Below are positions 526 through 34,819 of a stretch of 34,819 bases of DNA, one piece after another. Every line of letters begins with the position of its first letter. Position 1 is the stretch's first letter. Location of the stretch: IMG/VR virus record IMGVR_UViG_3300005077_000063, positions 1-34,819 of that record; one strand, given 5' to 3'. Source of the stretch: a virus. Its lineage: Duplodnaviria; Caudoviricetes. The notes beneath the pieces were generated by a model. It saw only the letters and a list, made by a program, of their open reading frames with translations. It did not search any database and was not told the origin of the DNA. A program made the translations under genes and the position numbers.

Positions 526-2016
526 ATGAAGAAAATATTTATCATTCTAGCTGGACTGCTTTTAACTGCAAATCTAGCTAACGCTACGGTAAAAAAAGCC
601 ACGGTTTTTCATCCGATTACGGGAGAAAGAAAAGTCGTCACAGTAGGCGACCCGGATGCTTTCGATGGTGGATTCCGCCTGGAAACGCCGACTGACTATT
701 TCAATCCCATCCTGGGAGCCACCGTCCCTCTGGCTGTCGCTGATTTTGAAACTTCTCTCGCTCAGAAGCTCACCTCAACCGAAACGTCTTCGATGACTCT
801 GGTTTCAGGAACCACGGGCGATGGAACAACCTTGAACGGCATTTACGGGTTTACGATTGACGAAGGAAATTCCTACAAGGAATATGTCATCGCCACTTGC
901 GTGGATACGGCTTGCTCAAGCCTTACCAGGGGAATTTCCACAGTTACCGGCTCATCTTCCGTCGCCGCCCTAAAAAAAGATCACCGCCGGGGGGCCAATG
1001 TAAAGATTACAGACCATCCCATAATTACGGTCATGGCCCGAATCCTGAACGGGCAAGATACGATTCCTGCAAAGCTCATCTATGACGATACCCTTCAAAT
1101 TGGAGTAGGAGACGCTACTTCCACTATCCCGACCAAATACTACGTTGACAATATTGCCATAGCCGGAGGAACAACCGCCACAGAGGGCACTCCAGGAATT
1201 TCAAAAATAGGAACCGCCCAGCAGATTGCTTCAAGCACCTTCAGCGCAGGAGACCCCACTGTCATTCCGACAAGCAGGGCCACCTCAAGTCCGGATGTAA
1301 GAAGTCTAGGAAATATCCCAGCGACGGGAAATGATGGCTATTTAAATCAGGGGTGGTTGGATTTATCTGAAACGTTCACATTTACAGGAGGTGTTGATGG
1401 TATCATAATAGGAAAGAATATTTCTATATTGACAGCCTCAACAACAATAACTGGAGCTTCAACACCTCAGCCGGTATATATTGCAACTACTACAGGAGCT
1501 TTGGAATTAAGCGATGCCAATAATGATACTACTTATTATGCTTTTCACGGATTTGCAATATCCTCTGGCGTAAATGGGGAGTCAATTTACGTCCAAACCA
1601 AAGGAGTCGTAACTGGTTTTACGGGCTTGACTCCAGGAGCTGATTACTATGTTCAGGATTCTGTTGGGACAATAGGAACATCAAAGGGCACAACTCCTCT
1701 TAAAGTAGGCAGAGCGTTAACATCAACTACGCTTATGATTGACAGGCAAAAGACATTCGGGACATTTGCAGCAAAGACAGATAATACAGAATATTTTGCC
1801 TATACTGACGGAAATCTGTATTGCTGGGCAGGAGATGGTTCAGGAGCCAGTGCTATGACTGCATATATTAATAATACTATATATATCAAAGATAATAACT
1901 CAACCAATGGCGGTGTCAGCGGATTTGCATTGTTTGTGGCGGCTGGCCAAAAATATAAATGCGATGGAGCAGTTACTGGCGGAACTAATTCTATATACTG
2001 GCAACCATTTAATTAA
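526..2016 (+). CDS. Tail fibre/spike-like virion protein with N-terminal Sec-type signal peptide
   Basis: 496 aa, Thr/Gly/Ser-rich, with fibre-like motifs (PTKYYVD; GFTGLTPGADYY). N-terminus MKKIFIILAGLLLTANLANA has a basic n-region, a hydrophobic h-region and an AxA site. Confidence 0.65.
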   Translation: MKKIFIILAGLLLTANLANATVKKATVFHPITGERKVVTVGDPDAFDGGFRLETPTDYFNPILGATVPLAVADFETSLAQKLTSTETSSMTLVSGTTGDGTTLNGIYGFTIDEGNSYKEYVIATCVDTACSSLTRGISTVTGSSSVAALKKDHRRGANVKITDHPIITVMARILNGQDTIPAKLIYDDTLQIGVGDATSTIPTKYYVDNIAIAGGTTATEGTPGISKIGTAQQIASSTFSAGDPTVIPTSRATSSPDVRSLGNIPATGNDGYLNQGWLDLSETFTFTGGVDGIIIGKNISILTASTTITGASTPQPVYIATTTGALELSDANNDTTYYAFHGFAISSGVNGESIYVQTKGVVTGFTGLTPGADYYVQDSVGTIGTSKGTTPLKVGRALTSTTLMIDRQKTFGTFAAKTDNTEYFAYTDGNLYCWAGDGSGASAMTAYINNTIYIKDNNSTNGGVSGFALFVAAGQKYKCDGAVTGGTNSIYWQPFN

Positions 2017-7228: not shown

Positions 7229-8011
7229 ATGAAAATTCTTGATGTGCATATACTCACATGGGTCGGTATATTTGTCGTTTTAATCGGGACTGGACTGACA
7301 TTCCTCGGTCAGCAACGAAGCAGCGATAAAAGCTCAAAAGAAATTTCTGATAAAGCTGACAAAATACAATCCCTGACAGAGAACAACATTAAACTGAGTC
7401 AGCAATTGGCTAATACGGCAACGAAAAATGCTGAACTGAGCGAGGAATTAAAGAAATATCTTACCAGTGGAGATTCCTACTGCTACATATTGCCAATGCC
7501 GGACCAAATATCTGATAGGCAATCATTCCTACTCTTGCATGAAGGAAAATATCCTCTGTACGATGTGACTATTGAATTTATTGATCAATCCTTAATGAGC
7601 GGCCTTCCACTAAAGAACCTCTATGATAATATCATTGAAAGCCAGAAAGAGGATGTTGAAGCAGGTAGACCTAAAGAGCGAGATTTGTATGCTGAAATTT
7701 CAGATCTAAGAGAAAAGGCCATAGTCAGAATTCCAATTGGAACACTTGGGCCAAAAACAGCACGGGAGTTAGGAAGACTAGACATGCGAGGGAGAAAAGA
7801 GGCCGATTTTAGAATTACAATTTCTACAAGGAACGCTTTCTTCAGCGAACACATAAGAGAAGAAAGAGTAGATAAAGGATGGCGTTATTCATGGCAAGTT
7901 ACAAGAACAGAAAACAATGAATCCATAATCCTCAAAGAACATATCAATCCAAAACTTCCATTAATTCCGCCAGAGGAATCTTCCCCTTCAAAAGATATTC
8001 CAAAACAGTGA
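7229..8011 (+). CDS. Membrane-anchored hypothetical protein (moron-like)
   Basis: 260 aa: N-terminal TM helix (ILTWVGIFVVLIGTGLTFLG), a coiled coil, then a beta-rich domain. Confidence 0.7.
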   Translation: MKILDVHILTWVGIFVVLIGTGLTFLGQQRSSDKSSKEISDKADKIQSLTENNIKLSQQLANTATKNAELSEELKKYLTSGDSYCYILPMPDQISDRQSFLLLHEGKYPLYDVTIEFIDQSLMSGLPLKNLYDNIIESQKEDVEAGRPKERDLYAEISDLREKAIVRIPIGTLGPKTARELGRLDMRGRKEADFRITISTRNAFFSEHIREERVDKGWRYSWQVTRTENNESIILKEHINPKLPLIPPEESSPSKDIPKQ

Positions 8012-13888: not shown

Positions 13889-14386
13889 ATGAAAACAAAA
13901 CACAACAAAACCTATGCTGGGAAACCTACTCAGCGTATCAAAAAAAGAAGAAGACTCGTCATTGCAGGGCTTATCATCACAGCCGTAATGACAGTGGCCA
14001 TAAATAAGGCCTATGCTTACCTATTTCAATGGGAAGCCCCAGAGATAAACATTTATCAGCCAAAGATTGAAAGTGAATTGGAAATCTACCCAAAAGAAGA
14101 ACCAATGAAAGAATGGGTATTGAAAACAGTCTACGAGGCAGGGCTCAACCCAGAAGAAATTGACTGCCTTATAGAGAATGAAAGCGGATGGAATGACTAC
14201 GCCTACAATGTAAATTGGCACAACGGCACAACCGATATGGGCTTATGGATGATCAACAGCATTCATAAGGGAACCATCGACGTTAGAGATAGGCTTGATT
14301 ACAAGAAGGCTACCTACTGGGCGATTGATAAAATCAAGAGAGATGGAAACTATAACGCTTGGTATGGATATTCTAAGTGTAAATAA
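13889..14386 (+). CDS. Lytic transglycosylase (SLT-like) with N-terminal signal anchor
   Basis: Basic N-terminus and TM helix, then IENESG (catalytic Glu), DMGLWMIN and NAW motifs. Confidence 0.8.
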   Translation: MKTKHNKTYAGKPTQRIKKRRRLVIAGLIITAVMTVAINKAYAYLFQWEAPEINIYQPKIESELEIYPKEEPMKEWVLKTVYEAGLNPEEIDCLIENESGWNDYAYNVNWHNGTTDMGLWMINSIHKGTIDVRDRLDYKKATYWAIDKIKRDGNYNAWYGYSKCK

Positions 14387-14982: not shown

Positions 14983-15657
14983 ATGACAGTAGACCTGTCA
15001 GATTTCCTTACCAAGTCAGCGACAAAGCCCCGTTTGGCTGAATGCCTTTGGATAATCGCCGAAGTGCGGTATGCCACCTGGGGGCAGATAAAGGCTCAGG
15101 AGGACGTATGGGTCCAGCATATCGCCACAAAAACCAAGATTTCCAAGCTTCTAGAGCTTGGATTTCTTGTTTTAAATCAAGAGGTTTATTCAGTTGGAGA
15201 GCAAGGTTTTACATTCCTAAAGGAACAGGGTTATAATACCGCCCACCTTCAGAAGCGTTTGAGGGCAGACGGAAGCTCCCACACACTTCAAATTACAGAG
15301 ATTTTGCTCTCTGTCAGGAAAGAGTCTCATTTTTTTACTGTTTTTTTTCCTACCTTTACAGAGCTTGAGCCAGACGCCTGCCTCGTTTTTAAGAAGGAAG
15401 ACGCCTACAAACTCGAATTTCTTGAAGTTGAGCGGACAGAAAAACGGGACGGATACCTGATCGAGAAGAAGAGGAAATATGAAGATCTTGCCCAAAGAAA
15501 AGAAACCTGGGAAAAGTGGTGGCGACATAATTCTAAAAAGCTCTCACTCCCGTTCTGCAAAAGAGAAGACTTCTGCTTCTCGGTCAGATGTTACGGAAAG
15601 TTCCGGGCAGAGTGGGAAGGATGGCGGTTCTGTCAACACCCTGAGAAAACAATATAG
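14983..15657 (+). CDS. Replication-relaxation (Replic_Relax)-like wHTH + PD-(D/E)XK nuclease
   Basis: N-terminal wHTH (ISKLLELGFL...YSVGEQG), then HTLQITE, PDA, FLEVERTE and K..KY motifs; T4CP-like ATPase in the same operon. Confidence 0.7.
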   Translation: MTVDLSDFLTKSATKPRLAECLWIIAEVRYATWGQIKAQEDVWVQHIATKTKISKLLELGFLVLNQEVYSVGEQGFTFLKEQGYNTAHLQKRLRADGSSHTLQITEILLSVRKESHFFTVFFPTFTELEPDACLVFKKEDAYKLEFLEVERTEKRDGYLIEKKRKYEDLAQRKETWEKWWRHNSKKLSLPFCKREDFCFSVRCYGKFRAEWEGWRFCQHPEKTI

Positions 15658-16147
15658 ATCTGCGAGATTGAATCTTGTTTTCAAGCATGTTCTAGTCGCC
15701 CTTTTTTTGTCTTACGTCGGTTTTCTTTCAATGTTTAAATGCCTCGCCTTACCAGAAGATGAAAGAATAAAGCTTCCACCAGACAATAGAACAATTTCTG
15801 ATGATTCAATAAAAATTTATTGGGGAGGATTAGGCGTTATTGGTTTGGCCGTTGCAGGTCTTATTTATTACTATGGATATAGAAAAGGCCAAATTAAGTT
15901 TAGTTTTATTTGTCCTCACTGTTTAAAGCAAGTCAATGCCCATGAGCTAACTTTTAATTGTCCTTTCTGCGAAAAACAGTATCAAGCCTCACAGCAAAAT
16001 ATGTATGATATGTTTCTAAAATGCCGAAACGAAGGTTGTAATTCAGAAATTCAATATATTCAATGTCCTCATGCTGACTGCCAACAGCCAATAAACTTAA
16101 TGGCTTATTACAACGAAAAAGAATTGAGAGCGAAACGATATGACTAA
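15479..16147 (+). CDS. Two-TM membrane protein with C-terminal multi-CxxC zinc ribbons (true start probably near 15660)
   Basis: Two hydrophobic segments followed by CPHC, CPFC, CRNEGC and CPHADC; AT-rich. Confidence 0.65.
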   Translation: MKILPKEKKPGKSGGDIILKSSHSRSAKEKTSASRSDVTESSGQSGKDGGSVNTLRKQYRSARLNLVFKHVLVALFLSYVGFLSMFKCLALPEDERIKLPPDNRTISDDSIKIYWGGLGVIGLAVAGLIYYYGYRKGQIKFSFICPHCLKQVNAHELTFNCPFCEKQYQASQQNMYDMFLKCRNEGCNSEIQYIQCPHADCQQPINLMAYYNEKELRAKRYD

Positions 16148-16919
16148 GAAATTTATTGCTAAGACAACGAAGTCTAATCTTCCTGTTAACATCAATTCAC
16201 AGGCCATTCCGTCTGCACTCAAGCAGTTTGACCTTAACAAGCTGAACCTTGTTTCTCTTTCTAAAGAGCTTGAGGCTTCCCTAAATTCTTCTGCTCCTCA
16301 GTCGGTTCTGTTTGGATGGGCAGGACTTAAACGCCAGAAATTAAAGACTGAACATCAGAGAAATATCCTTGACCATATTTACAATATCCGAAGAGTCAAT
16401 GAGGAGCTTTGCCATCTTCAGGCAGAACTTTTTCTTTCTCCGCAGACGATTGAGCTTTTAATTGAAGGGAAACGCCTAGAAGCAGAGCATAAGATACAAC
16501 TGGCAGTAAAAGAGCAGGAAGCCAAGCTCCACGCTTTAAGCAAGGAAATGGAGGCCAGAGAAGTCAATCTTGACCATATGCGGGAAGTTGTTAGGAACTT
16601 GAAGGCCGATACAGACGCTAAAACTGCCCGTATTGAGCTTATGCGTAAGGTTGTGGACTCCATAGACCTAAATGAGCTTCCAGACTACCTGAGAGCCTTT
16701 GTAATCGCTTCTGTGTTTAATCCGAACCAGCCCATTACCCAAGAAATGAGCCTGATGGACGATTTGAAGGACTTTATGATTCAAAAGGCTTCAGGAGAGG
16801 CCCGCAAGACACAAGCTCAGGCAGGTAGAGAAGAAGCACAAGAAAAAATAGAACGGACAACAGCTCAAAAAACTGAAGACGATTATGCGAGACTTAGGGA
16901 TTCCTCTAAGGGCAAGTGA
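16140..16919 (+). CDS. Coiled-coil hypothetical protein
   Basis: 259 aa helical protein overlapping both neighbours. Confidence 0.7.
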   Translation: MTKKFIAKTTKSNLPVNINSQAIPSALKQFDLNKLNLVSLSKELEASLNSSAPQSVLFGWAGLKRQKLKTEHQRNILDHIYNIRRVNEELCHLQAELFLSPQTIELLIEGKRLEAEHKIQLAVKEQEAKLHALSKEMEAREVNLDHMREVVRNLKADTDAKTARIELMRKVVDSIDLNELPDYLRAFVIASVFNPNQPITQEMSLMDDLKDFMIQKASGEARKTQAQAGREEAQEKIERTTAQKTEDDYARLRDSSKGK

Positions 16920-18045
16920 AGGCCTTCCTATTCAGGATGAGGAAGACCGCTTCAGGCATCTTTATTGTCTAGGCAAGACCAGGACTGGAAAAACAACCTT
17001 CTTTTTGAATTTAATTTCCCAGGAGATTCAAAACGCCTTAATCGTTATTGATCCCGTAGGCGGTTTTGCTGAATCTGTTGCTTCCCTTTCCCCGCCTGAA
17101 CGCCTGATCTACGTAGACCAAGAACACCCCGTAATCATCAATCCCCTCACCAAATACGATTGGGCGAAATCTGCCAAAGAGTTTATCGAGGTTTTGAATG
17201 CCTGCGTTGCTGGAACGACATCGACCATAGACACCACCGTCTTAATGGAAGAAATTATCCTAAATGCCATTCGCGTATTCCGTCCCAATCAGAGAAATAT
17301 CAAATATCTTTCCCAATTTCTTAATTTCGAGGAACAGCGAAGAAACCACGCGCCAGATGAATATTGGACGTTCTTTGATTCCAGAGATAGGCGGGGATGG
17401 CTTCAGAACAAGGAGAAGGTCGATTCAGCAAAAAGGGTAGGGGCAAGGCTTACCGCTTTTCATCTTGATCCTTCTATTTCTCCGTTTGTGATTGGAGACA
17501 ATGAGCTAAACATCAAGCAGATAGCAGATGAAAGAAAAATAGCGGTTTTCAACTTAAGGGGATTCGATACCAACGCCCAGATTTATCTTGGAAACCTCAT
17601 CTCCCACGCAGTCAAGAATTATTACAATTATGAGGCTACCGAACACTCCCCCACTCTGTTCTTCTACGTGGATGAATTTCACAAATTCATTACCCCTTTC
17701 TTTTCCGATATGCTTTCCCAGTGTGGAAAGTTCAATATCTCCTTGAATTTTGCCCATCAGAATCATTTTCAGATATCCCGAGAACTCTTGAACACAGTAC
17801 TTGGAAATTGTTTCACCAAGGTTGTTTTTCAGGTTGGATATGATGAAGCAGACAGAATGGCAAAAGACTTTCAGTTTCCTGCCAAAGAAATCCAGAATCT
17901 AGGCAAGTATGAAGCTTATGTTTTAATAGGGAAACAGCCTCACAAAGTCCTTACTTATCCCCCGCCTGAATCCGCTCAATTTATTCCAGAGCCTCCCCAA
18001 GAGCCTGTTAATTTTTTACGGGACTCTTGGATTCAAATGGTATAA
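16885..18045 (+). CDS. VirD4/TraG/TrwB-like coupling-protein ATPase (HerA/FtsK superfamily), no TM anchor
   Basis: RHLYCLGKTRTGKT Walker A, VIDPVG, INPL, FYVDEFH Walker B, AHQ, LGNC...VF, DA..MA motifs. Confidence 0.8.
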   Translation: MRDLGIPLRASEGLPIQDEEDRFRHLYCLGKTRTGKTTFFLNLISQEIQNALIVIDPVGGFAESVASLSPPERLIYVDQEHPVIINPLTKYDWAKSAKEFIEVLNACVAGTTSTIDTTVLMEEIILNAIRVFRPNQRNIKYLSQFLNFEEQRRNHAPDEYWTFFDSRDRRGWLQNKEKVDSAKRVGARLTAFHLDPSISPFVIGDNELNIKQIADERKIAVFNLRGFDTNAQIYLGNLISHAVKNYYNYEATEHSPTLFFYVDEFHKFITPFFSDMLSQCGKFNISLNFAHQNHFQISRELLNTVLGNCFTKVVFQVGYDEADRMAKDFQFPAKEIQNLGKYEAYVLIGKQPHKVLTYPPPESAQFIPEPPQEPVNFLRDSWIQMV

Positions 18046-21990: not shown

Positions 21991-23997
21991 ATGAAAATTA
22001 CAGTTGACCAAAAACTAGATGCAATAAAAATCTCAGACGACGATTTGATTGAGCAGATTCAAAGGGAATACAACAACGCCCTTGATTTCAGGAAGCCTAG
22101 AATCAACGATTGGCACGCCAATGAGGATATGCTTTACGGCAGGAAGCCGAAGACCCTTTCCAAGAGGAGCAATATCGACCTCCGCTTGATGAAGGGGTTT
22201 GAGGATACGCTCCTTTCTAAAATCAAGAACCCGCCTGTCGTTAAATACCAGCCCACCGAAGAAGCAGACAAGACCAAAGCCAAGAAAGTGACCGCCCTCT
22301 GGGAACTCGAAAGCTCTCCCTCTCAGCAGAACTGGAAGTTCAAAGACAAGCTTTCAAAGAAGCTGTCTCTCCCTTCAGGACGTGTCATCACGAAAATTTA
22401 CGCGACCGCCAAACCTTACAAACACCATCGAGAAGAAATAGACCATTATGACTTCCTGATTGACCCTTTGGCAGGCGGATACGACATCGAAAACGCCCGC
22501 TATTTGGGGCAGGATAATATCTTTAAAAGCAAATTCCAGCTTGAAAATAATCCGAAATACGACCAGGAGAAAGTGAAGGAGCTCGTAGGCGACGATACGG
22601 AAAGAACCTCAACTGCCGAGGCGGATAACCAATACAAAGAGAAAGCCAACCGCTTTGCGGTCCTGGGGTTGAACACCGATGAGTACAACTGGCAAAAAGA
22701 CGGCCTTTACAAGCTTTTGGAGTGGTATACGACCATCAACGGGGATCGCTGGTATATCGTCTGCAACCTGGAAAAGAAAGTCATCCTCAAGAAATGCCTT
22801 TTAAGAGAGATTATCGGCATCCACGAGGAAAATGGAATTTCCCTTTATCCCTTTGCTTCGTGGGCATATTACCCCGATTTATTCAACTTCTGGAGCCAGT
22901 CCCCGATGGACGTCGTGAGGGAGAATTTCCAGACCAGAAATATCGTCATCAACCAAGCCATTGACAATAACGAGGCCAAAAACAGGCCGAATAGAAGCTA
23001 CGACCCGCACATTTACAAGGATAGAACCAAACTGAAGGAATACCGGGATGCTCTGATTCCGGTGGCGAAGGGAACCGACCCATCAAAAGGCATCTACATC
23101 CACCCGGTAAACAGCATTTATGACCCAAAAGCTTTGAATGACATGCTTAGGGAAATCGCCGCCCAGGTTACTGGCGTAACTCCAGGAGGAGAAGGAACCG
23201 AAGAAGGCGACCAGAAAGTCGGAATCTATTACGGAAATATGCAGGAAGTGGCCAATCGAATGTCAGGTTTTGAAGACAGCTATTCAAATGCCCTCAACAA
23301 AATGGCCCTGCTTTACTTGAACGGTCTCAAAGACCACTTGGACGAGGAGAAGGCCATTAAGATGATCGGCGAGAAAGGCGTGGAATGGGAAAAGCTCGTT
23401 AAAGATGACCTGGGAGAATTCGACATCATCGTTACGGGAGGCCTCACCGAAGCTCAGAATGACGCCATAAAGGCGAAAGCCAAGGCGGATTTCATTGCCA
23501 GACACGCCGCCAGTCCGGTTATCAACCCCAAGGCCGTGGTGGAAATGGATGCCCTCAATGCCGGTTTCGAACCCGAGGAAGTAAAAAGGCTGTTAGAGCC
23601 GAACGATGCCAGCGAGGAAATGACCGTCAGAGCCGCCGAGGATATTCAAAAGCTCCTTTTAGGTGAGGACTTCCTGCCATTCAGGAAAGCCGATACCGCC
23701 TATATGGAAAACATCCTTGAATTCTACGAGAAGACCGAGATGAAGCCGGAGCAGGAAAAGAGATTCCAGGGTTACATAGACGCGATTCAGGACATTGTCA
23801 TAAAAAATACAGTGTTAAAGGCCCAGCGAGCTTTGGCCCAGCAAGGACTGCTCCCCACCCCGAACGCGCCAGGTATGCCCCCAGGAGAGCCAGGAGGCCC
23901 TGAATTACAGCCACAGACAAAAGGAGCCACCATCGACAGGGCAAGTCAAATAACAAACAATTTAAAGCCAAATTATGCTACAGAGCCTATTGGATAA
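21991..23997 (+). CDS. Portal protein (P22-like)
   Basis: 668 aa after terL; DFLIDP, YPF...FWSQSP.D, VTGVT, FDI motifs and a Pro/Gln-rich tail. Confidence 0.85.
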   Translation: MKITVDQKLDAIKISDDDLIEQIQREYNNALDFRKPRINDWHANEDMLYGRKPKTLSKRSNIDLRLMKGFEDTLLSKIKNPPVVKYQPTEEADKTKAKKVTALWELESSPSQQNWKFKDKLSKKLSLPSGRVITKIYATAKPYKHHREEIDHYDFLIDPLAGGYDIENARYLGQDNIFKSKFQLENNPKYDQEKVKELVGDDTERTSTAEADNQYKEKANRFAVLGLNTDEYNWQKDGLYKLLEWYTTINGDRWYIVCNLEKKVILKKCLLREIIGIHEENGISLYPFASWAYYPDLFNFWSQSPMDVVRENFQTRNIVINQAIDNNEAKNRPNRSYDPHIYKDRTKLKEYRDALIPVAKGTDPSKGIYIHPVNSIYDPKALNDMLREIAAQVTGVTPGGEGTEEGDQKVGIYYGNMQEVANRMSGFEDSYSNALNKMALLYLNGLKDHLDEEKAIKMIGEKGVEWEKLVKDDLGEFDIIVTGGLTEAQNDAIKAKAKADFIARHAASPVINPKAVVEMDALNAGFEPEEVKRLLEPNDASEEMTVRAAEDIQKLLLGEDFLPFRKADTAYMENILEFYEKTEMKPEQEKRFQGYIDAIQDIVIKNTVLKAQRALAQQGLLPTPNAPGMPPGEPGGPELQPQTKGATIDRASQITNNLKPNYATEPIG

Positions 23998-25547: not shown

Positions 25548-26744
25548 ATGGCAGACCAATTTACTTACCACCAAGAGGGATTTGCGAATAAGTACCAAGA
25601 CGTATTGCAAAAAACTCTGGTGGCTGATGTGGTCGCTAATCGCAGGCTTGAAAAGCAGTTGACAGTCGGCAAAAAAATCAGCCGATTCAAACTGGTAGTC
25701 GGCGGACACGTTTACGATGAAAGCCGGTATACCGACAGAACCGTAGACACAGTAAGCGACGACACTCAATACATCGAAATAGACAAAGAAAAATATTTAT
25801 CTTGGAAACTTCACAAATGGGACAAATTGCAGAATACCCCATTGCAGGCAGGCGAAGAAATCGGACGCCAAAAAGGCCACTCTATGAGGCAATACATTGA
25901 CGCCGATGTTTTAGCCGAAACATTAAACGCCTACGATACTTTTGATGATGGCGATATCAGTGGAACAGCCGGAAACGGTCTTGATTTTTCCGTTATCAAC
26001 ATCCCAAAAGTGGCGACTCTTTTGCCCGCTAAATTAAGGCAGAACAATGTGGAAGACGGCCAATTCGCCTATGTCCTAGACCCAATAATGATTGCTTACG
26101 TTCAGCAAACATTGCTTGGCAAAGACATCAATTTGACAGATGCCACGTTCAAAAACGGCTATACAGGTCCATTGGTAGGCTGGAGCCTTCACTCATCCAA
26201 CAATTTGACCTTCACTGCCAAGCTTAATATGGCAACCGAGCCGACCGCCAACGATACAGTTGTAATCGGAGACGTTACATTTACCTTTAAGGCAACCGCA
26301 AACGCAGCCGGCCACGTCAAATTGACCGCTACACCCGCCACAACTCTTGATAATCTTGTAGCCGCTATCAACGGTTCAGGCACGGGAGACGGAACCGATT
26401 ATTACGAAGTCTCTACAGCCAACCGAGCTAAATTGCGTGATACATACCGAGCAGCCGCTGTTGACGGCACAACTTATCTTACCCTGACCTGCACAGGCTC
26501 AGGCAGATTAACTGTGTCTGAAACCTTTACCGATGCCACAGACGGATGGAGCCTAAAGAAACTTCACTGCTACGCCGGTAAGAAAAAGCAGGTTGACTTG
26601 ATCATGCAACAGGACGTTCAAGTTGATATGAGACCAGAGCCGAAACAGCCTGTCAACAACTTTTTCGTGGACGCTCTCTACGGCAAGAAGACCTTTGACG
26701 ATGCAGCTCAGAGGTTCCTAGACTTGCAGGTTGTTATTGGCTAA
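25548..26744 (+). CDS. Major capsid protein (P22 coat-like HK97 fold) with inserted domain
   Basis: IEIDKEKY, IDADVL, L..NNV, YVLDP, G.LVGW.L.SSNNL and DALYG.K motifs; Thr/Ala-rich insertion at about 26211-26550. Confidence 0.85.
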   Translation: MADQFTYHQEGFANKYQDVLQKTLVADVVANRRLEKQLTVGKKISRFKLVVGGHVYDESRYTDRTVDTVSDDTQYIEIDKEKYLSWKLHKWDKLQNTPLQAGEEIGRQKGHSMRQYIDADVLAETLNAYDTFDDGDISGTAGNGLDFSVINIPKVATLLPAKLRQNNVEDGQFAYVLDPIMIAYVQQTLLGKDINLTDATFKNGYTGPLVGWSLHSSNNLTFTAKLNMATEPTANDTVVIGDVTFTFKATANAAGHVKLTATPATTLDNLVAAINGSGTGDGTDYYEVSTANRAKLRDTYRAAAVDGTTYLTLTCTGSGRLTVSETFTDATDGWSLKKLHCYAGKKKQVDLIMQQDVQVDMRPEPKQPVNNFFVDALYGKKTFDDAAQRFLDLQVVIG

Positions 26745-26774: not shown

Positions 26775-27455
26775 ATGACCAACATTAAAGAAAAACTCAT
26801 TTATATCTCAATTGCAGGTCTGATGGTTCTTTCGATTGTGAATATATCGATGAACGCAAACCGCTCTCCAGAAATGGTAGGAAGCACGATCCACGTCTTC
26901 CAAGACGACTTTACCGCAGGAATAGCCGTCAACGGCACCGAGGTAATCAATTCATCTGGCGTTTATGTAGGAGCCGTAAGCGGAACAACCGGGGCTTATT
27001 CGAGCACTTTGTCTGTGACCGGAGCCAGCACTTTGACCGGGGCCGTCTCTATGGGAAGCACCTTGAGTGTGACAGGGGCAACTTCTCTTGAAACTCTAAC
27101 CCAAGGAGGCGGAGAAAAGGCAACATCAACTGATGATACGACAGCGACTCTGCTTTCCACCGACATCGACACGGAGAACCTTCTAACTTTCACGCCGAAT
27201 GTATCAGGAATAACTCTGACTCTTCCTGCTTCATCTACTTTGTCAGCGCACATTCCAAGCACAGGAGACAGTAGAGAAGTGTGGGTCGCAAATGGCACTT
27301 CTACCCCTGGCACCCCGTTCACTTTGGCAGCAGGCACAGGCTGGACTATTCAGATATCAACTTCTACCGCGAATGTTCATACAGGAAAACACGCGGTCTT
27401 GAAGATGATTAGAAAGGCCAATACCGACATCCTGGGAATTCTACAGATTGACTAA
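26775..27455 (+). CDS. Putative capsid decoration/fibre protein with N-terminal TM or signal
   Basis: Hydrophobic N-terminus, TLSVTGA repeats and ITLTLPA motif; follows the capsid gene. Confidence 0.6.
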   Translation: MTNIKEKLIYISIAGLMVLSIVNISMNANRSPEMVGSTIHVFQDDFTAGIAVNGTEVINSSGVYVGAVSGTTGAYSSTLSVTGASTLTGAVSMGSTLSVTGATSLETLTQGGGEKATSTDDTTATLLSTDIDTENLLTFTPNVSGITLTLPASSTLSAHIPSTGDSREVWVANGTSTPGTPFTLAAGTGWTIQISTSTANVHTGKHAVLKMIRKANTDILGILQID

Positions 27456-27462
27456 TTGAGAT

Positions 27463-27500
27463 AAGATTCTGCTCATCCAAAAGAGGTGGGCAGAAATCTT
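27463..27500 (+). terminator. Hairpin after capsid/decoration genes
   Basis: AAGATTCTGCTCATC-CAAAAGA-GGTGGGCAGAAATCTT; no strong U tract, so it may be a processing or stabilising stem. Confidence 0.45.
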
Positions 27501-27523
27501 AACTTAATAACTCAAGAAAAAGT

Positions 27524-27922
27524 ATGAAAAAAGTGATAATAATCGTAATTGCCGTCCTACTGGGAGGGTTTGCTGGATATTTGCTCAGGAATCCTGAAAC
27601 AATAAGAAGGGCCTGGGACCAAGGAATTGGAGGGTATTATTTTGATGATGTCGAGCAGACAGTAGCCACGACGACGGCTGACACCAACCCGATACAAGTC
27701 CTTTCGACAAAGACTAGCCGGCAATACGCTTTGATTCAGAACGACAGCGACACATCGGTTTATCTTGCTTTAGGAGCCAGCACGACTGCAGCAGTCAATG
27801 AAGGAATCCGCTTAAATGCCAACGGTGGAAGCTATGAAATCAACGAATTGAACCTTTACACAGGCGAAATCTGGGCCACAAGTTCAGCCAGCAATAAGAA
27901 GCTCTTAATAACTGAAAAATAA
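27524..27922 (+). CDS. Small beta-sandwich virion protein with N-terminal TM or signal
   Basis: MKKVIIIVIAVLLGGFAGYLL, then RQYALIQNDSDTSVYL...GIRLNANGGSYEI...LYTGEIWA. Confidence 0.6.
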   Translation: MKKVIIIVIAVLLGGFAGYLLRNPETIRRAWDQGIGGYYFDDVEQTVATTTADTNPIQVLSTKTSRQYALIQNDSDTSVYLALGASTTAAVNEGIRLNANGGSYEINELNLYTGEIWATSSASNKKLLITEK

Positions 27923-28783
27923 ATGAGGCAAAAAGGGAGAGAAAAACCAAAAACAGAAGTTATTGTTGATAACCTGGAGGCAAACGTCAACCGGCTGATT
28001 TCCGCGTTTGAATCACTGAAAAGCCAGATACGAGACACCAAGCCCACCATAATCAAAGACGACCAGAAAATCCTTGATTGGCTGGATAAGTTCCAAATCG
28101 AGCCCACCGACCTTTCCAACCTGGAAACCCTTCTCAAAGGCGTGGAATCAGCCGTTAGAAGCCTCAAATTTGAGCAGAGAGAAGTTATTTCGGTCAAAGA
28201 GGCCAATGACCTCATAAAAGCCATTACCGCCGTTAAACGCGCGGTTATGGCCCAGGATTTGTCCGTCAGCTTCGACACTGACCGGATTGAGAGTCTTCTA
28301 AAAAGCATATTAGACGAAATCCCCAGAGTGGAATTCCCTGAGGATTATCCCCTTCCCGACAGCCAACTGCAAAAACTTCTGGACGCCTTCAACGACCTGG
28401 CTACCCAGGAAGGCCTGGAAGACATCGTTTCCGCCATCAAGAAAATCCGCGTGGGCGGAGGCGGAGGCGGAACCGACATTGTGGGGCTGAAGAATGAGGT
28501 AAATGGCAGGGATACAAGAGTGAATGTGGCTACGGAAGACACCCTAGACGAAATCAAGACGAAAATCGGGGGGAGCCTGGAGAATTACAAAGTCGCAGAC
28601 ATCGTCATGAGCGAGAGCGGATACAATTATTACGGATACGTGGATCAGGACGAAAACTGGTACATCATGAGGGAGGGAAGCTCAGGGACGCAATACCGCT
28701 TTGCCTCGGGAACGGGAAGCTACGAAACAGCCTGGACTAATCGGGCAAGCCAATCTTACGATTATTTATTCAACGCATTCTAG
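27923..28783 (+). CDS. Hypothetical virion-associated protein
   Basis: 286 aa: helical N-terminus, G6 linker and aromatic C-terminal domain (YYGY...WYIMR...WTNRA). Confidence 0.6.
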   Translation: MRQKGREKPKTEVIVDNLEANVNRLISAFESLKSQIRDTKPTIIKDDQKILDWLDKFQIEPTDLSNLETLLKGVESAVRSLKFEQREVISVKEANDLIKAITAVKRAVMAQDLSVSFDTDRIESLLKSILDEIPRVEFPEDYPLPDSQLQKLLDAFNDLATQEGLEDIVSAIKKIRVGGGGGGTDIVGLKNEVNGRDTRVNVATEDTLDEIKTKIGGSLENYKVADIVMSESGYNYYGYVDQDENWYIMREGSSGTQYRFASGTGSYETAWTNRASQSYDYLFNAF

Positions 28784-28785
28784 AA

Positions 28786-30948
28786 ATGAAAGGACACAAA
28801 TTTACAATTCTATTTATCGTCATCTGTTCATTCGCCTTTGGGTTCGCTGTTTGGGCTGATTACAAATTCAATCCCTTTACAAGCAAACTTGATTATTACG
28901 AAACAGCTTCTACGACCCCTGAAAATGATTCTCGATATGTTAATGTATCTAGCGATATTATGATAGGAGATTTAGGAATTAAAGCAGATCTGGATGTTTA
29001 CACGGTTGGAGATTATCTGGTTAATGATAACGCCTATACTTACAACGGAAACAATTATGACTTTCAAGCGATAGTAGGTGCTTATTGGGGAATCTATTAT
29101 GCCACAGGAAGTGATTTGGCTTTTGGCGGATATTTCGGCGACCCGCCTGTCTATGTTTTACCAGATATTGTGGACGGTTCGGAAGATATTGGAGTGATGC
29201 TTGGAACTGTTTACCAGGATGTTGGTTTTGGTGCTCCATTTAGATTCACATTCTATTATCTTTTGTCAGAATATGCAGATTTGTATAACTTTTTAGCCGG
29301 AATGTTCGGAGCTGAAAGCGGTTCAACCTGGACAATGGATTACAAAAATGACGGATTGTTTACGAATAACGGAGCTGGAAATGATTTTACTTACAACGCA
29401 GACGCTAATTTAATCCCTTATCCATCAGGAACGCCGAGCATAGCCAAGCCATTGATATCAACTTTTAATGTTGATGACGCTACTGGAAATATAACGACGT
29501 CTGGTCAATATACCTCAAGTCTTGCCAATGGTACAGCACCTTTCGATTTGTCGTCAGCCACCCTTAACACGAACCTAAATGCTGACTATTTAGATGGTCT
29601 TCACGCTGGCAATTCAAGTGGATATATTCCAATCAGCAATGGGACAGTCAATACGAACCTAAATGCTGACCTTTGGGATGGATACCAATCCAGTGATTAT
29701 CTTGACCAAGCAGTAAAACAGGCCTCATCTCCCTCTTTTGGTGGGTTAACTTTGAACGGCAATTTGTTGATCAATACGACCAACGCAGTTCAATTCAGAG
29801 ATGCAAATAATTACATTCAGTCGTCGGCGACAGACAGCATAGATTTTGTTGTAGATACAGGCGGGCAATATAGATTTTCAAGCGGAGCAGGAAGCGATGG
29901 AGGGCAGTTAGTTATAGGAAACAGTTCAAGCTTTAATTCTAACTATGGCAAATTGAACATAAATGATAATGGACCGGTCCCAGAAAACACAGGCACATTC
30001 TATCACGTGTTAAGTTCAATGGAATACCAAGCATCTGGCTGGACTGGTGATAGTGCATCAAATAGACAGGCGTCTGCCTTGCAGGTAGCTTATAGACATT
30101 ATACCCCATACATGATCAATTATCCCATCGGTGGCAATTTTGTTCTTCAAGTGAATAGCGGAAGGGATTGGGAAACACCAGGGACCCCGACAGTAGGAAC
30201 ACGTGGAGCTGCACTTCAATTCCAAGTCTATAATCAGGATGACTATGCACATGCAATCTATGGTTTTTATCAAGAGCAGGGAAGCTGCCAGGCCATAACA
30301 AGAAACACAAAAATAGGTCAGTATTTTGGCGGTTCGTTTGGAAGGTTGCAGATACAGGGAACAGCTACATACACCTCTCACGTTGATTTAGCCACAGGTC
30401 TTGATATATGGCCAGTCACAGTCCAAACAAATGGAAGCCTTGATCAATACAGGGGAATTACAGTTGGACTGCCAAGCATGGATAGTGATGCAGGAGATAA
30501 TATAGATTTCATTACAGGTATAAAATTCAATCACGGAACAAATTCTAGTGCAACTTACACAATGACAAATTATTATGGCGTTGAGATGAGTGGGATCAGC
30601 AGCTTCACTGGTGGAAGTAACTATGGCTTCAATTTCTATAACTGGGATAATCAAAATGACACCAAAGTCATTTCGATAGATGATATTGACGGAGTATCGT
30701 CGGCCATTGGTCTTTATATAAATGACATTTCGATAGGAGGAGATAACAATAATGCAAATGCTTGGGGGATCTATACAGGGTCAACTGCCAAAAACTATTT
30801 TGGTGCGACGACTACGATAAATGCCATTTTGCACTTAACTCCTCGCAGTCAGCCAGGAAGTGCAACAGAAGGAGATGTCTATTCAGACACAGACGACCAT
30901 CATCTGTATTTCTATAATGGAAGCGGATGGGTCCAACTTGATAACTAA
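28786..30948 (+). CDS. Tail fibre/receptor-binding protein with Sec-type signal peptide
   Basis: 720 aa, Gly/Asn/Thr-rich. Two NTNLNADxxDG fibre repeats, C-terminal EGDVY...LYFYNGSGW motif, and N-terminal MKGHKFTILFIVICSFAFGFAVWA. Confidence 0.7.
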   Translation: MKGHKFTILFIVICSFAFGFAVWADYKFNPFTSKLDYYETASTTPENDSRYVNVSSDIMIGDLGIKADLDVYTVGDYLVNDNAYTYNGNNYDFQAIVGAYWGIYYATGSDLAFGGYFGDPPVYVLPDIVDGSEDIGVMLGTVYQDVGFGAPFRFTFYYLLSEYADLYNFLAGMFGAESGSTWTMDYKNDGLFTNNGAGNDFTYNADANLIPYPSGTPSIAKPLISTFNVDDATGNITTSGQYTSSLANGTAPFDLSSATLNTNLNADYLDGLHAGNSSGYIPISNGTVNTNLNADLWDGYQSSDYLDQAVKQASSPSFGGLTLNGNLLINTTNAVQFRDANNYIQSSATDSIDFVVDTGGQYRFSSGAGSDGGQLVIGNSSSFNSNYGKLNINDNGPVPENTGTFYHVLSSMEYQASGWTGDSASNRQASALQVAYRHYTPYMINYPIGGNFVLQVNSGRDWETPGTPTVGTRGAALQFQVYNQDDYAHAIYGFYQEQGSCQAITRNTKIGQYFGGSFGRLQIQGTATYTSHVDLATGLDIWPVTVQTNGSLDQYRGITVGLPSMDSDAGDNIDFITGIKFNHGTNSSATYTMTNYYGVEMSGISSFTGGSNYGFNFYNWDNQNDTKVISIDDIDGVSSAIGLYINDISIGGDNNNANAWGIYTGSTAKNYFGATTTINAILHLTPRSQPGSATEGDVYSDTDDHHLYFYNGSGWVQLDN

Positions 30949-30957
30949 CACAACAAT

Positions 30958-31299
30958 ATGACAAAAGCAAGCTTAATGTTATTAGGATTAACGATAGGAA
31001 TAATAGGAACTATAGCCCTATCTAATGTTAATTCACAAGAACAAACGGCAACTTATGATAAACTAAGCGCTGACATCTATCAGGAGACAACTGAAAACAG
31101 TGTGAAATATAGTAAAGCAGGCTTAGAAGCGGAAAAAAGCGAATTGACTGAAATATATAATTTAAGCAATGGAGCTTGGGAAAGGATTGACAATATAAAA
31201 CATCTTATAAGCCAAGATACCCCGGACTTTAAACGAATATGCCAAGATAAGATAGATAAAATAGATGAAAAGTTAACGGAGATTAACAAACTAAAATAA
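30958..31299 (+). CDS. Signal/TM-bearing coiled-coil protein (possible fibre chaperone)
   Basis: N-terminal hydrophobic helix, helical body; follows the fibre gene. Confidence 0.55.
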   Translation: MTKASLMLLGLTIGIIGTIALSNVNSQEQTATYDKLSADIYQETTENSVKYSKAGLEAEKSELTEIYNLSNGAWERIDNIKHLISQDTPDFKRICQDKIDKIDEKLTEINKLK

Positions 31300-31303
31300 A
31301 CCT

Positions 31304-31564
31304 ATGGAAATTCTACTAGGATTAGTGGTTTCCGGAATAACGGAAATCGCAAAAGTAATATCTGCAAAGCTCGGCAAGGAACTTACGAGCAAGCTTATCT
31401 ATGGAATTGTATTTCTTGGAACGTTTGTATTCACTTATATGCTCAGAGCTGGAGTGATTTCAATGGCCGACGTGCAGAACTTTATTGAGATATTTTCAAC
31501 TGCCGTTGCCAGCTATGAAATTGTAATAAAGAGAGTCCTGAAGCCTGCCCTTGATTTAGAGTAA
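31304..31564 (+). CDS. Holin-like membrane protein
   Basis: 86 aa with 2-3 hydrophobic helices and a charged C-terminus. Confidence 0.55.
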   Translation: MEILLGLVVSGITEIAKVISAKLGKELTSKLIYGIVFLGTFVFTYMLRAGVISMADVQNFIEIFSTAVASYEIVIKRVLKPALDLE

Positions 31565-31569
31565 ATCGT

Positions 31570-31818
31570 ATGGATGACAAGATCAACCAAATAAATATTA
31601 CTATGGAAGGATTTAGAAAAGACATCGGGTATATTAAGCATTCACTCGATGAAAACAAGACCGAGCACAAGGAAATCTTGGACAGGATTGACGCTTGGTT
31701 TAAGACAGCCGAAGACAAGTTCGCCAACAAATGGGTTGAGAAAGTCGCTATTGCAATTGGCTCTGTTGTGGGACTGGCGATAATTGGAGCCGTCTTGAGT
31801 TTAATCATAATCAAATAA
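31570..31818 (+). CDS. Coiled-coil protein with C-terminal TM (XhlA-like topology)
   Basis: Heptad N-terminus, then KWVEKVAIAIGSVVGLAIIGAVLSLIIIK. Confidence 0.6.
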   Translation: MDDKINQINITMEGFRKDIGYIKHSLDENKTEHKEILDRIDAWFKTAEDKFANKWVEKVAIAIGSVVGLAIIGAVLSLIIIK

Positions 31819-31819
31819 T

Positions 31820-32842
31820 ATGAAAAACGTTAGAAAGGAGTTTATTGAAGCTCCTGTAAAAAATACCGGGCTTATTTATGAAGAGCCTAAGGAGCAGGAC
31901 TGGATACTAGGTTCGAGCCCCTTGGAAAACAGGGAAATATTCCCTGATGGGCATGGATGGCCGAAATACAGGCCAGAGGCGGAAATTCAAAGAAACCGCC
32001 ATTTTGACACATTCTCCTGCGTAACCTTTGCCGTCTTAAAAGCCCTGGTAATGTATTTGCGTGTAAACTACGGGGTAACTTTCGACCTTTCCGAAGTCTT
32101 TACCGCCGTGATGAGCGGAACTGTTCCAGGACGAGGAAATTCAGTTAGGAATGTCCTTGAGAGCGTCAGGAAGGACGGCTTTTTAGCCGAATACCTCCGC
32201 ACCTTCACTCCCGAGATGACCAAAGAGCAGTTTTTCAGCCCGATCCCCGAAAAGCTCATCGAGCTGGCAAGAAATAATCTCTTGGAGTGGGAAATCAACT
32301 GGGAAATCATCAGCACCAATTCCAATGTCAACCACACGGACATTACAAACGCTCTCAGGTATTCTCCGATCATCGCCGTTGGCTACGCATGGATACAATC
32401 GGGCAAAGACGGGATGTATTATGACCAGGGCAATTATCCGAACCACTGCTTCTTAATAGACGACTATGACGAAAATGACCAAAGAAAACTCATTGCCAAT
32501 GACAGCTACCCGCATGATTTTGAGGCGGACGGAAATTATCCGACTGAAGAATTTCTCAAGGTGCTCAACCCAAATTTCCGCATCTGGTCAGCCCATAAAA
32601 TAACGGCTTATCCAATTATAAAGGCCAAAGACAGTTTATTAACTAAATTCATCAATATGTTCAAAGAAGTCATACGAGACATTCATGGCGGATACTGGTT
32701 CATCAAAGACGGGAAACGCCAGAAAATCAATTCGATTGGCGGTTTAATGACTGTTATTTTCCGGAATTTCGGAATCGCTAAAGACAATGTGTCCGATGAT
32801 GAGCTAGGCCGATTCCAGTTAACAAACGAATTTTTCAAATAG
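31820..32842 (+). CDS. Papain-like (clan CA, C1-type) cysteine peptidase
   Basis: Oxyanion Gln and catalytic Cys in IQ...TFSCVTFA (Cys67), DLSE, G.G, SP, NHC (His209) and NDSY. Confidence 0.75.
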   Translation: MKNVRKEFIEAPVKNTGLIYEEPKEQDWILGSSPLENREIFPDGHGWPKYRPEAEIQRNRHFDTFSCVTFAVLKALVMYLRVNYGVTFDLSEVFTAVMSGTVPGRGNSVRNVLESVRKDGFLAEYLRTFTPEMTKEQFFSPIPEKLIELARNNLLEWEINWEIISTNSNVNHTDITNALRYSPIIAVGYAWIQSGKDGMYYDQGNYPNHCFLIDDYDENDQRKLIANDSYPHDFEADGNYPTEEFLKVLNPNFRIWSAHKITAYPIIKAKDSLLTKFINMFKEVIRDIHGGYWFIKDGKRQKINSIGGLMTVIFRNFGIAKDNVSDDELGRFQLTNEFFK

Positions 32843-33442
32843 ATGACACCAGAGGAAATCTACAATTTATTCCAGCTGGAATTGGACGGAGAGACATTTG
32901 ACTCAGACGAAGACGCAGAACAAGAGATGAATATCGCCTGGCGGAATCTTCTCTCTGACCGAAACTGGGTAAAGCTCAAAAAGACTCAGACTTTATCCGC
33001 CGGCGAAACCGACCTGACAACCATTACTGACCTAGACAAGGTTTTGAAAGTATGGGCAGTGGGAGATGGTGGATCAACCGACCGAACCCCTTTAATCGGA
33101 GGAACATTCGATGACAGGTTCAACCTTTCTTTTGATTATTGGATAGACCACGTTAACCAGACTTTCAACTTGATTGGCGATGATAACTCATATGAAGAAG
33201 ACGAGCTGGTTGTCGACTACAAATACAAACCGGATGATTTGGCTTTAGAAGATGAAAATGATGTGTCCGTATTTCCCGCCTTTGCCCACCCCATAATCGC
33301 CTACGACATGATTCTCGCCTATAAGGAAAAGGACGAGAACCCTGATTTTTATCAAACCATTGAGCGGAAGAGAGAACGCCTCTTTGACCGCCTCGTTCTT
33401 TGGAACGAACAGCTAGAAGATTATGCCGAGAGTCAAGAATGA
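32843..33442 (+). CDS. Head-to-tail adaptor (tail tubular A / P22 gp4-like)
   Basis: 199 aa acidic protein, MT..EI...MN.A...W..L and FP..AH.IIAY pattern; precedes the stabilisation gene. Confidence 0.65.
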   Translation: MTPEEIYNLFQLELDGETFDSDEDAEQEMNIAWRNLLSDRNWVKLKKTQTLSAGETDLTTITDLDKVLKVWAVGDGGSTDRTPLIGGTFDDRFNLSFDYWIDHVNQTFNLIGDDNSYEEDELVVDYKYKPDDLALEDENDVSVFPAFAHPIIAYDMILAYKEKDENPDFYQTIERKRERLFDRLVLWNEQLEDYAESQE

Positions 33443-34819
33443 AAAATTGAATAAAGTATTTGGAAAAGGAACTGTCAACACGATTGAATCAGACATCATC
33501 GAAAGGGGAGCAGCCTCCGCTTCTGAGAATTTCATAACCGAGCTTGACCACATCGAGCTTGTGAGGGGGCGGAAGCTGATTGGAGAAAACGAAAGCGGGA
33601 ATGACCCGGTCCTGGGGCTTCATACCGCCTATAAAGCTGACGGCACGGAAATTCTTTTAAGGAAAATCGGCACCACCCTTCAATACTACGACGATGACAC
33701 CGAGGCCTGGGTTGACATCGAAACCGACCTCACGGACGGCGAGGAGCTTTCCTTTGCCAATTCCTTTACCCCCGCAGGCCGGCAAGTCTGGATGTGCGGG
33801 GAGGACGGCCTCTTCAAACTCTACCCCTCAAGCCCTCTTTCCATAATCAACCATACCGACGCAACCAAGAATTACAAGGGAAAAATCAGGATAGAAAAGT
33901 CCAGGATGATTCTTTGGGGAAGGGAAGACGACCCGACCGGCCTATATTTCTCGAAAGTAGACAAAGACAGCAATTACACAAGCGTGTCCGCCGAGGCCAT
34001 AGGCGCTTTGGGTTCAAAGACATACAGCGGAACCCTAGCCCACGGGGAGATGTTCGGGCTTGTGATTACGGACGGAACCCAGACTGTAAGAGATGACAAG
34101 AATGGAAACTTGACTGGAGACGGAACAGGAACGATAAATTACGCTACTGGGGCCTATTCGGTCACCTTTGACGCTATAACCACGGATGCAGTCACGGCAG
34201 ATTATCTCTACGAAGCCCCAAAAACGAACGGCCTGGCCGACTTCACGTATTCAGCCACCAGATTGGCAAGCGAGGGCAATATCCAGAGGCAGGACGCCAC
34301 CGGAGCGGAAAGCAAATCAGTCATCACTTTTGACGGGGTTTTCTATACCTTGCAAGACAAGGGGGCTTGGAAAGTCTCCATAGACGCCGCCGACCTGGTT
34401 TGGACAAATGAACTTTACAATCTAACCATTGGCATACCCACCTGGAAAGCGGCCATTCCCTTGGCGGACGGCATTCTTTTCGTTGATACCGCCAACTCGG
34501 AAGAGCCTAAGCTGAGAAAGCTTGCCTACAGCCTCTATTCGGACAAAGTGGAAGCTTTTGACCTTTCAGTCAACTTCAAAATGGAAGATTACGTCTTTGA
34601 TCAGGCCGTGCTTTTCAAATTTGGGGATTACGCCCTGATTTCCTGCCGAACTTCTGGAAGCACCGTCAACAATAAGACCATTCTCTACCACCTCTTGAAT
34701 AAGACCTTTGACGTTCTAGACCACGGATACAATTTCTTCACGATTAAAGATGACAAGCTCTATGGCGGAGATAGCTTTTCTCCAAATGTCTTTGAACTCT
34801 TTTCCGGCTGGGATGATGA
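33423..34819 (+). CDS. 5' part of tail stabilisation/nozzle protein (continues at 1-520)
   Basis: ATG at 33423 (MPRVKNEKLNKVFGKGTVNT...), open to the window end; beta-rich. Absent from the ORF track because it has no stop in the window. Confidence 0.75.
   Translation, partial: MPRVKNEKLNKVFGKGTVNTIESDIIERGAASASENFITELDHIELVRGRKLIGENESGNDPVLGLHTAYKADGTEILLRKIGTTLQYYDDDTEAWVDIETDLTDGEELSFANSFTPAGRQVWMCGEDGLFKLYPSSPLSIINHTDATKNYKGKIRIEKSRMILWGREDDPTGLYFSKVDKDSNYTSVSAEAIGALGSKTYSGTLAHGEMFGLVITDGTQTVRDDKNGNLTGDGTGTINYATGAYSVTFDAITTDAVTADYLYEAPKTNGLADFTYSATRLASEGNIQRQDATGAESKSVITFDGVFYTLQDKGAWKVSIDAADLVWTNELYNLTIGIPTWKAAIPLADGILFVDTANSEEPKLRKLAYSLYSDKVEAFDLSVNFKMEDYVFDQAVLFKFGDYALISCRTSGSTVNNKTILYHLLNKTFDVLDHGYNFFTIKDDKLYGGDSFSPNVFELFSGWDD
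34721..34819. repeat. Terminal direct repeat, right copy
   Basis: Identical to 1-99. Confidence 0.97.

Follow-up and report, generated by a model that had tools for sequence, protein, structure and literature searches.

Export-type leaders on outward-facing virion proteins of a podovirus-like genome point to a possible export-and-cleave maturation route

In the textbook view, all the parts of a tailed phage are made and assembled in the cytoplasm. The DNA analysed here, IMG/VR record IMGVR_UViG_3300005077_000063 (the window; the whole virus record, 34,819 nucleotides), is a podovirus-like genome in which five genes, named by their start positions as 526, 26775, 27524, 28786 and 30958, encode proteins that begin with a basic and then hydrophobic, export-type leader. 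The evidence supports a model by which a capsid spike (26775), a decoration-type protein (27524) and two fibres (526 and 28786) are exported, cut outside the membrane, probably O-glycosylated and then bound to the particle, and we regard this model as probable, if well short of certain. A first-pass annotation of the sequence had proposed that all five proteins are virion parts which, after export, are released by proteolysis and join the particle at lysis or during extrusion. Leaders on virion parts stand for four of the five genes; 30958 has its leader, yet it has no relatives and a virion role for it is unsupported. Export followed by cleavage draws support from the starts of leaderless homologues, from virion-part folds and gene slots and from the precedent of the cultured Cellulophaga phage phi18:3, whereas extrusion is not favoured and 30958 as a virion part is not supported.

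The leader pattern itself is solid and widespread. Leaders were called throughout by our own Kyte-Doolittle hydropathy rule with a 13-residue window. All five N-termini are present in the sequence as they had been quoted, as are the hydrophobic-Gly-small sites reported downstream of three of them, namely ILG/A at G64 of 526, MVG/S at G36 of 26775 and GIG/G at G36 of 27524 (a slash marks a predicted cut). The portal, scaffold, capsid, adaptor and nozzle proteins and both ejection proteins have no hydrophobic leader, as the first-pass annotation had also stated. Its proposal that homologues be examined for the leader led to a clear outcome, as 67 of the 70 proteins related to 26775 have a hydrophobic N-terminus (a count that includes the window's own protein), and the first 80 residues of 526, searched against 1.84 billion representatives, gave 104 matches, of which 63 are leadered. 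The pattern of a Sec leader for signal peptidase I, with n-, h- and c-regions and AxA, is seen by eye and by hydropathy in 526 and 28786.

Four features lay outside the first-pass annotation: a Ser/Thr motif, A-[ST]-[ST]-T; two swappable leader types; a portable pro-module; and the coming and going of the leader trait within the family. The last was followed in 112 non-redundant capsid loci and in a further 38 loci found through the spike. Most of the 112 have a leader on no virion gene and a minority have leaders on one to six; the 38 spike loci belong to phages of varied gene order, and most of the 24 listed are leadered on several genes. In the comparison with leaderless homologues, L212_94 matches were left out (contig-edge truncation), as were rows L038, L078 and L096 (non-virion or mis-started open reading frames, ORFs). 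On a FastTree capsid tree of 76 rows, in which leader labels are manual and the label "none" may miss leaders in short loci, the 11 leadered rows need 8 changes, at least 5 of them forced by strong branches, so that, as judged from the capsid tree, gain, loss or exchange of the trait has happened many times over.

The 526, 27524 and 28786 families also have leaderless members in related phages, and these start where the window's leader ends. In the 526 family, 37 leaderless proteins share the body in related loci; those with a located anchor begin 2-9 residues (mode 8) ahead of a conserved xA[DE]F, and 6 or 11 residues separate the Gly from the same anchor in 8 of 9 leadered members. One leaderless phage (L059) has two tandem 526-family N-terminal domains, 3220 and 4319 bases past its capsid gene. 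The YKFNPFT-like motif that follows AVWA/D in 28786 is the N-terminus of leaderless proteins of L005, L095 and L363, and a leaderless homologue of 27524 begins at residue 39, three residues past G36. The L363 nozzle (L363:12738-14711; E 1.3e-17 to the window's) has a membrane-anchor leader ending in ILG/A, and Met1 of the leaderless nozzles of L190 and L205 aligns to its G48/A49; it is the sole leadered nozzle, the count among the others being 0/64.

The two leader types, a signal peptide ending in AxA or an anchor plus linker ending in hydrophobic-Gly, are interchangeable, and a single family has both with the same mature start (AFG/SVTMGNEY, ELG/SVNIGNEY and AEA/STIMGNDY). By a rough rule, 48 of the 67 leadered spike homologues, about two thirds, have no AxA site. 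Conservation of the hydrophobic-Gly motif, another check proposed in the first-pass annotation, was above chance when measured against 500 shuffles: hydrophobic-Gly-[AGST] lies no more than 45 residues past the h-region in 57 of the 67 spike homologues (shuffles: mean 33.0, max 45) and is present in 67 of 103 leadered proteins of related loci (mean 34.5, max 47). Exported host proteins have no such enrichment (15/75 vs 13.1 expected and 8/49 vs 11.2). The linker before the Gly varies widely in length, whereas the distance from Gly to domain does not. A cassette of signal, module and Gly is fused to several different bodies, and hydrophobic-Gly follows the signal-plus-module cassette by no more than 32 residues in 50 of 64 cases (shuffles: mean 15.4, max 25). 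The module itself, 38 residues long, is N-terminal or nearly so in most of the 41 leaderless matches to the 526 N-terminus; 20 of 35 leaderless module proteins tested match proteins in ejection slots of related loci, a position that was confirmed in three loci (L365:9992, L366:9731 and L367:3812).

The motif A-[ST]-[ST]-T goes with the presence of a leader. It occurs 198 times, vs 20.2 expected, in 103 leadered proteins (about tenfold), and 119 times, vs 94.0 expected, in 1,463 leaderless proteins; with one protein taken from each of 48 families the count is 43 vs 7.1. Within the shared 526 body there are 26 vs 4.5 expected where a leader is present and 11 vs 5.5 where it is not, and the window has 10 vs 0.77 expected in its five leadered proteins and none in the remaining 29 ORFs. 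N-x-[ST] is not enriched (390 vs 353 expected), and neither, in the window's five proteins, is D-[ST]-[AILVMT] (8 vs 8.7 expected), the O-glycosylation sequon of Bacteroidota. No known O-glycoprotein sequon was thus found, A-[ST]-[ST]-T being enriched yet no established sequon, and we know of no transferase for it. Like the Bacteroidota sequon it is short, built on Ser/Thr and enriched where proteins are exported, and because a Ser/Thr motif is here tied to export, it is most simply read as a site of modification outside the cell membrane, likely by O-glycosylation. Post-capsid genes that look glycosyltransferase-like by eye are present in five spike-bearing loci (L175, L185, L197, L201 and L211), and could bear on virion glycosylation.

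Gene position and fold bear on what the leadered proteins are. The 526 gene occupies the post-nozzle slot, where relatives have a homologous protein, and it is the single post-nozzle fibre-slot gene of the whole genome; a PDB sequence search matched neither the 526 alignment nor 28786, and the Atlas matches for 526 are under 0.9. The 26775 gene follows the capsid gene. Its model (predicted local distance difference test, pLDDT, 82.5) shows a helix (residues 3-25) and a knob (112-226) with a linker of low confidence between them, and this knob matches the capsid spike of phage Pa223 (9NY6_C) with Z 9.9, a root-mean-square deviation of 2.4 over 93 aligned residues and Foldseek E 8.4e-05; tailspike domains rank next, within 1-2 Z of the Pa223 spike. 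By its modelled knob fold, 26775 is a capsid spike, and the fold check suggested in the first-pass annotation comes out in its favour, whereas for 27524 the jelly-roll match is indecisive: the best match is PM2 spike P1 (Z 9.2) with cupin-like folds within about 1 Z, and no Foldseek match was found at E 0.001. For 30958 the homology search gives one match, itself, and neither motif is present; its product may serve in lysis or as a chaperone rather than in the virion.

The proposed model would have the heads and the tail core (portal, capsid, adaptor, nozzle and ejection proteins) built in the cytoplasm. The host Sec system would move the bodies of the leadered proteins out, their basic N-termini staying inside. 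Classical leaders (526 and 28786) would then be cut by signal peptidase I at AxA, and the anchors of 26775 and 27524, together with the pro-region of 526, would be removed at hydrophobic-Gly by a protease acting outside, which more probably belongs to the host than to the phage. Outside, where the parts would be either retained at the membrane or let go, A-[ST]-[ST]-T would be modified, most likely glycosylated, a step to which we give slightly less than an even chance. The cut would also free an N-terminal attachment segment, and the finished parts would meet DNA-filled heads when holin and endolysin open the envelope; on this last step we are evenly divided. The available text of the Pa223 spike preprint (bioRxiv 10.1101/2025.06.11.659172) makes no mention of "signal peptide" and reports that the first 41 residues (2-41) of spike gp52 alone fix it to the capsid; because that spike anchors by these residues alone, an uncut membrane anchor would be expected to block the capsid-binding end. 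Pa223 gp52 (PDB 9NY6) and 26775 share a C-terminal knob fold and a design with N-terminal attachment. They differ in that gp52 is modelled from residue 2 with its N-terminus bound to the capsid, and identity between the two is 9%, in the knob only.

Signal peptidase could be the only enzyme that cuts, in which case hydrophobic-Gly would act as a hinge or serve for binding or modification, the pro-module would stay in place and the anchor-type proteins would be released in some other way. Retention of the 38-residue module at the N-terminus of leaderless ejection proteins fits such a scheme, as does the wide variation of the residue after the Gly (A, G, S, T, F, Y), and no protease has been identified for the site. 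However, leaderless fibres, decoration proteins and nozzles begin at the Gly or no more than a few residues from it, and the Gly-to-domain distance holds steady behind linkers of variable length; we consider the scheme improbable, though worth keeping in view. An alternate scenario may leave the anchors in place, with particles finishing on the membrane and departing with a lipid patch or by extrusion, their spikes tethered. The shortage of AxA sites among spike homologues and the leadered nozzle of L363 are in keeping with it. Set against it are the N-terminal position of the attachment segments, the classical, cleavable type of the 526 and 28786 leaders and the presence of two holin-like genes with a peptidase gene in the endolysin slot, because of which extrusion is not favoured; the leaderless capsid protein, too, differs from what extrusion of the inovirus type would require. 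This scenario appears a little less probable again.

It is also conceivable that the exported proteins never join virions and instead cover the infected cell, serving as decoys, as adhesins or to block superinfection. The relatives are temperate, and exported prophage proteins often act at the cell surface; however, the sole post-nozzle fibre-slot gene is leadered, the L363 nozzle is leadered, and the leadered proteins of phi18:3 are annotated as virion proteins by tandem mass spectrometry (MS/MS), so that we find the suggestion unlikely. Finally, the first-pass annotation had allowed that true starts might lie downstream of the hydrophobic segments. This fails for 526, 27524 and 28786, which have no usable downstream ATG (a further in-frame ATG does not come until codon 90 in 526 and codon 59 in 28786, and the first 90 codons of 27524 contain no other), and keeps some ground in 26775, where in-frame Met17, Met26 and Met34 are present and Met34 falls just ahead of the Gly. 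Because leaders are conserved across diverged homologues and no ATG bypasses them in those three genes, a start-codon artefact is an unlikely source of the leaders; A-[ST]-[ST]-T enrichment, moreover, goes with the leader, and the artefact is largely refuted, with hardly any probability left to it.

The host is likely, though not certainly, a Patescibacterium, as judged from sequence comparison. Shine-Dalgarno-like starts are found for 2 of 27 genes in the window, a scarcity that is shared with Patescibacteria (16/201 and 40/270) and not with Syntrophales (71/186 and 93/245). Among the regions compared, the nearest counterparts of the window's recombination genes lie in a prophage of Patescibacteria contig G003:C9 (Sak4 70% identity, exonuclease 55%). 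Two fibres of that prophage are leadered, but no gene adjoining its capsid gene is, and the capsid family was found in 4 of 401 Patescibacteria genomes. The virion module most similar to the window's (portal 57%, nozzle 66%), however, lies integrated in a Syntrophales-labelled genome (G001), and only 2 of 301 genomes of that order match, the second weakly. A coupling-protein search, with 1/251 in each group, does not discriminate the host. The leadered prophage at G001:C2 ~115213-156334 (L261, L241 and L262) spans 41 kb, has AT-rich, non-Shine-Dalgarno gene starts and sits at tRNA-Leu(TAA); it possibly reflects a switch of host, or else the delivery of a phage of Patescibacteria type into a different bacterium.

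Several observations weigh against the proposed route or against the proposed host. No cultured homologue was found for 526 or 26775, the spike family was not found in the 401 Patescibacteria genomes, and it is a Syntrophales genome that contains the closest integrated relative, at tRNA-Leu with 17-bp attachment (att) repeats. The sampled exported proteins of Patescibacteria show no enrichment of A-[ST]-[ST]-T (2/75), those sampled from Syntrophales, the order of that closest integrated relative, have none (0/49), and across 151 genomes an ATSTP-type DNA pattern did not exceed its reversed control. The motif is thus not established as a general feature of Patescibacteria proteins, the few host examples coming from motif-picked genomes. 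The short hydrophobic-Gly motif was not found in 10 of the 67 spike homologues and 36 of the 103 loci proteins, and the 38-residue module is kept N-terminally in ejection proteins elsewhere, so it may be retained in 526. A nozzle normally helps to seal the packaged DNA, as in P22, and the leadered L363 nozzle is hard to fit with a simple meeting of parts and heads at lysis; it suggests that final assembly may take place at the membrane itself in some members.

As to the protease, the phage's own peptidase (31820), which we take to be papain-like from its Cys/His pattern, has no defining Pfam, PHROG or PDB match. It is disfavoured as the cutter: a homologue is present in the leaderless phage L025, and in L096 the slot is occupied by a gene that is presumably M23-like. 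In host genomes, VLG-[AED]-[ST]-T has matches in 67 of 111, not clearly above the reversed control; among 31 matches read in 30 loci, 17 are true peptides in ORFs of at least 100 residues, and 8 of those 17 lie near a hydrophobic segment, vs a background of 0.21 (p about 0.01). A looser VLG-type motif was near a hydrophobic segment in 0 of 4 cases in 827 unselected proteins. In Patescibacteria surface proteins (L377, L378 and L392-L395) the motif stands ahead of an LPxTG-like anchor or after an N-terminal anchor; it is sometimes repeated, and often lies directly ahead of the LPxTG-like signals. The occurrence of VLG-[AED]-[ST]-T near anchors is a weak lead towards a host sheddase. A wider and distinctly more speculative proposal, which we would not at present expect to hold in full, is that Patescibacteria-type podoviruses are widespread users of a second assembly compartment outside the cytoplasm, in which spikes, fibres and sometimes the nozzle would carry swappable leaders, be glycosylated at A-[ST]-[ST]-T and be shed by a host juxtamembrane protease reading hydrophobic-Gly, the same site as in host VLG-[AED]-[ST]-T; such phages would thereby reveal a shedding and glycosylation system of Patescibacteria.

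The window ends in an exact 99-bp direct terminal repeat (1-99 and 34721-34819), although the record's completeness estimate is 45%. As in Caudoviricetes, terminase, portal and major capsid genes are all present by profile; as in podoviruses, there is an adaptor by PF24175 and there are nozzle and ejection genes by gene order, and profile scans of the window ORFs gave no match to a sheath or tape-measure family. The leaderless protein that lies between 27524 and 28786 has an N-terminus that resembles, by eye, that of leaderless relatives in L005, L007 and L017. No integrase match was found among the window ORFs scanned. Upstream of primase and terminase, at 14983-18045, are genes for a replication-relaxation protein (PF13814) and a coupling-protein-like ATPase (PF12696, PF10412), a module that the G001 prophage also holds. 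Two more membrane-anchored ORFs lie outside the virion module, at 7229-8011 (260 residues) and 13889-14386 (SLT transglycosylase, PF01464), and neither contains A-[ST]-[ST]-T.

Table 1. Features of the window discussed in the text (a slash marks a predicted cut).
Feature	Position	Strand	Basis or remarks	Leader
526, tail fibre/spike after nozzle	526..2016	+	pro-module, ILG/A; 4 A-[ST]-[ST]-T	signal peptide
Predicted Sec signal peptide of 526, residues 1-20, ANA/T	526..585	+	same pattern in 63/104 matches
Portable ~38-residue module of 526, residues 23-60	592..705	+
ILG/A of 526, predicted second cut	709..720	+	column where leaderless homologues begin
26775, capsid spike by modelled fold	26775..27455	+	MVG/S at G36, knob 112-226; 2 A-[ST]-[ST]-T	anchor 9-25
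27524, small jelly-roll decoration-type protein	27524..27922	+	GIG/G at G36; 2 A-[ST]-[ST]-T	anchor 4-21
28786, large fibre	28786..30948	+	AVWA/D exposing YKFNPFT; 2 A-[ST]-[ST]-T	predicted signal peptide
30958, orphan ahead of holin-like genes	30958..31299	+		leadered
Major capsid protein	25548..26744	+	phrog_267, E 3e-09	none
Portal, SU10-type	21991..23997	+	PF23899, phrog_1216	none
Adaptor	32843..33442	+	PF24175	none
Nozzle	33423..34819, running over the 99-bp terminal repeat to 520	+	gene order	none
Terminase	starts 20305		profile match phrog_10250
Two ejection proteins	start 2033 and 3488		gene order	none
Protein within structural module	27923..28783	+		none
Two holin-like genes and peptidase-like gene in endolysin slot	31304..32842	+

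Among known systems, the tail module is of the SU10-like podovirus type, with portal PF23899 and adaptor PF24175 above Pfam cut-offs and podovirus gene order. SU10-like podoviruses make their fibres in the cytoplasm, and most of the relatives sampled are leaderless, unlike the window. The nearest precedent for leadered parts is the cultured phage phi18:3 (Pachyviridae, KC821620), in which gp085-gp087, annotated as structural proteins detected by MS/MS, are leadered and adjacent, while the other 8 of the 11 structural proteins examined are leaderless. It resembles the window as a tailed phage with Sec-type leaders on some structural proteins, and differs in its Bacteroidota host, in having only classical-looking leaders and in containing A-[ST]-[ST]-T once in gp085-gp087; in the literature searched, no paper commenting on these leaders was found. 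Inoviridae likewise have membrane-anchored structural proteins, and the coat-protein leader of filamentous phage f1 is removed by a cellular peptidase, as stated in the available text of PMC3185693. However, Inoviridae are single-stranded DNA phages extruded without lysis, with all parts membrane-inserted, whereas the window has a leaderless portal/terminase head and leaders on outer parts only. A 2026 patescibacterial phage paper uses "signal peptide" once in its available text, of host proteins (PMC13059738), and no description of the route was found in the literature searched, at the level of titles and abstract openings. An export-and-cleave route for tailed-phage parts, whose mechanism we infer from the sequence, thus appears to be one for which no published description was found.

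Occurrence of the same virion protein with and without a leader in related phages serves as a built-in control, and allows the mature N-termini to be predicted exactly. If the proposed model is correct, an extracytoplasmic maturation route would be added to those of tailed phages, and with it a means for phages to carry host-made glycans. The two short signals would, in that case, point to processing enzymes of Patescibacteria, a group with a cell biology that is difficult to investigate.

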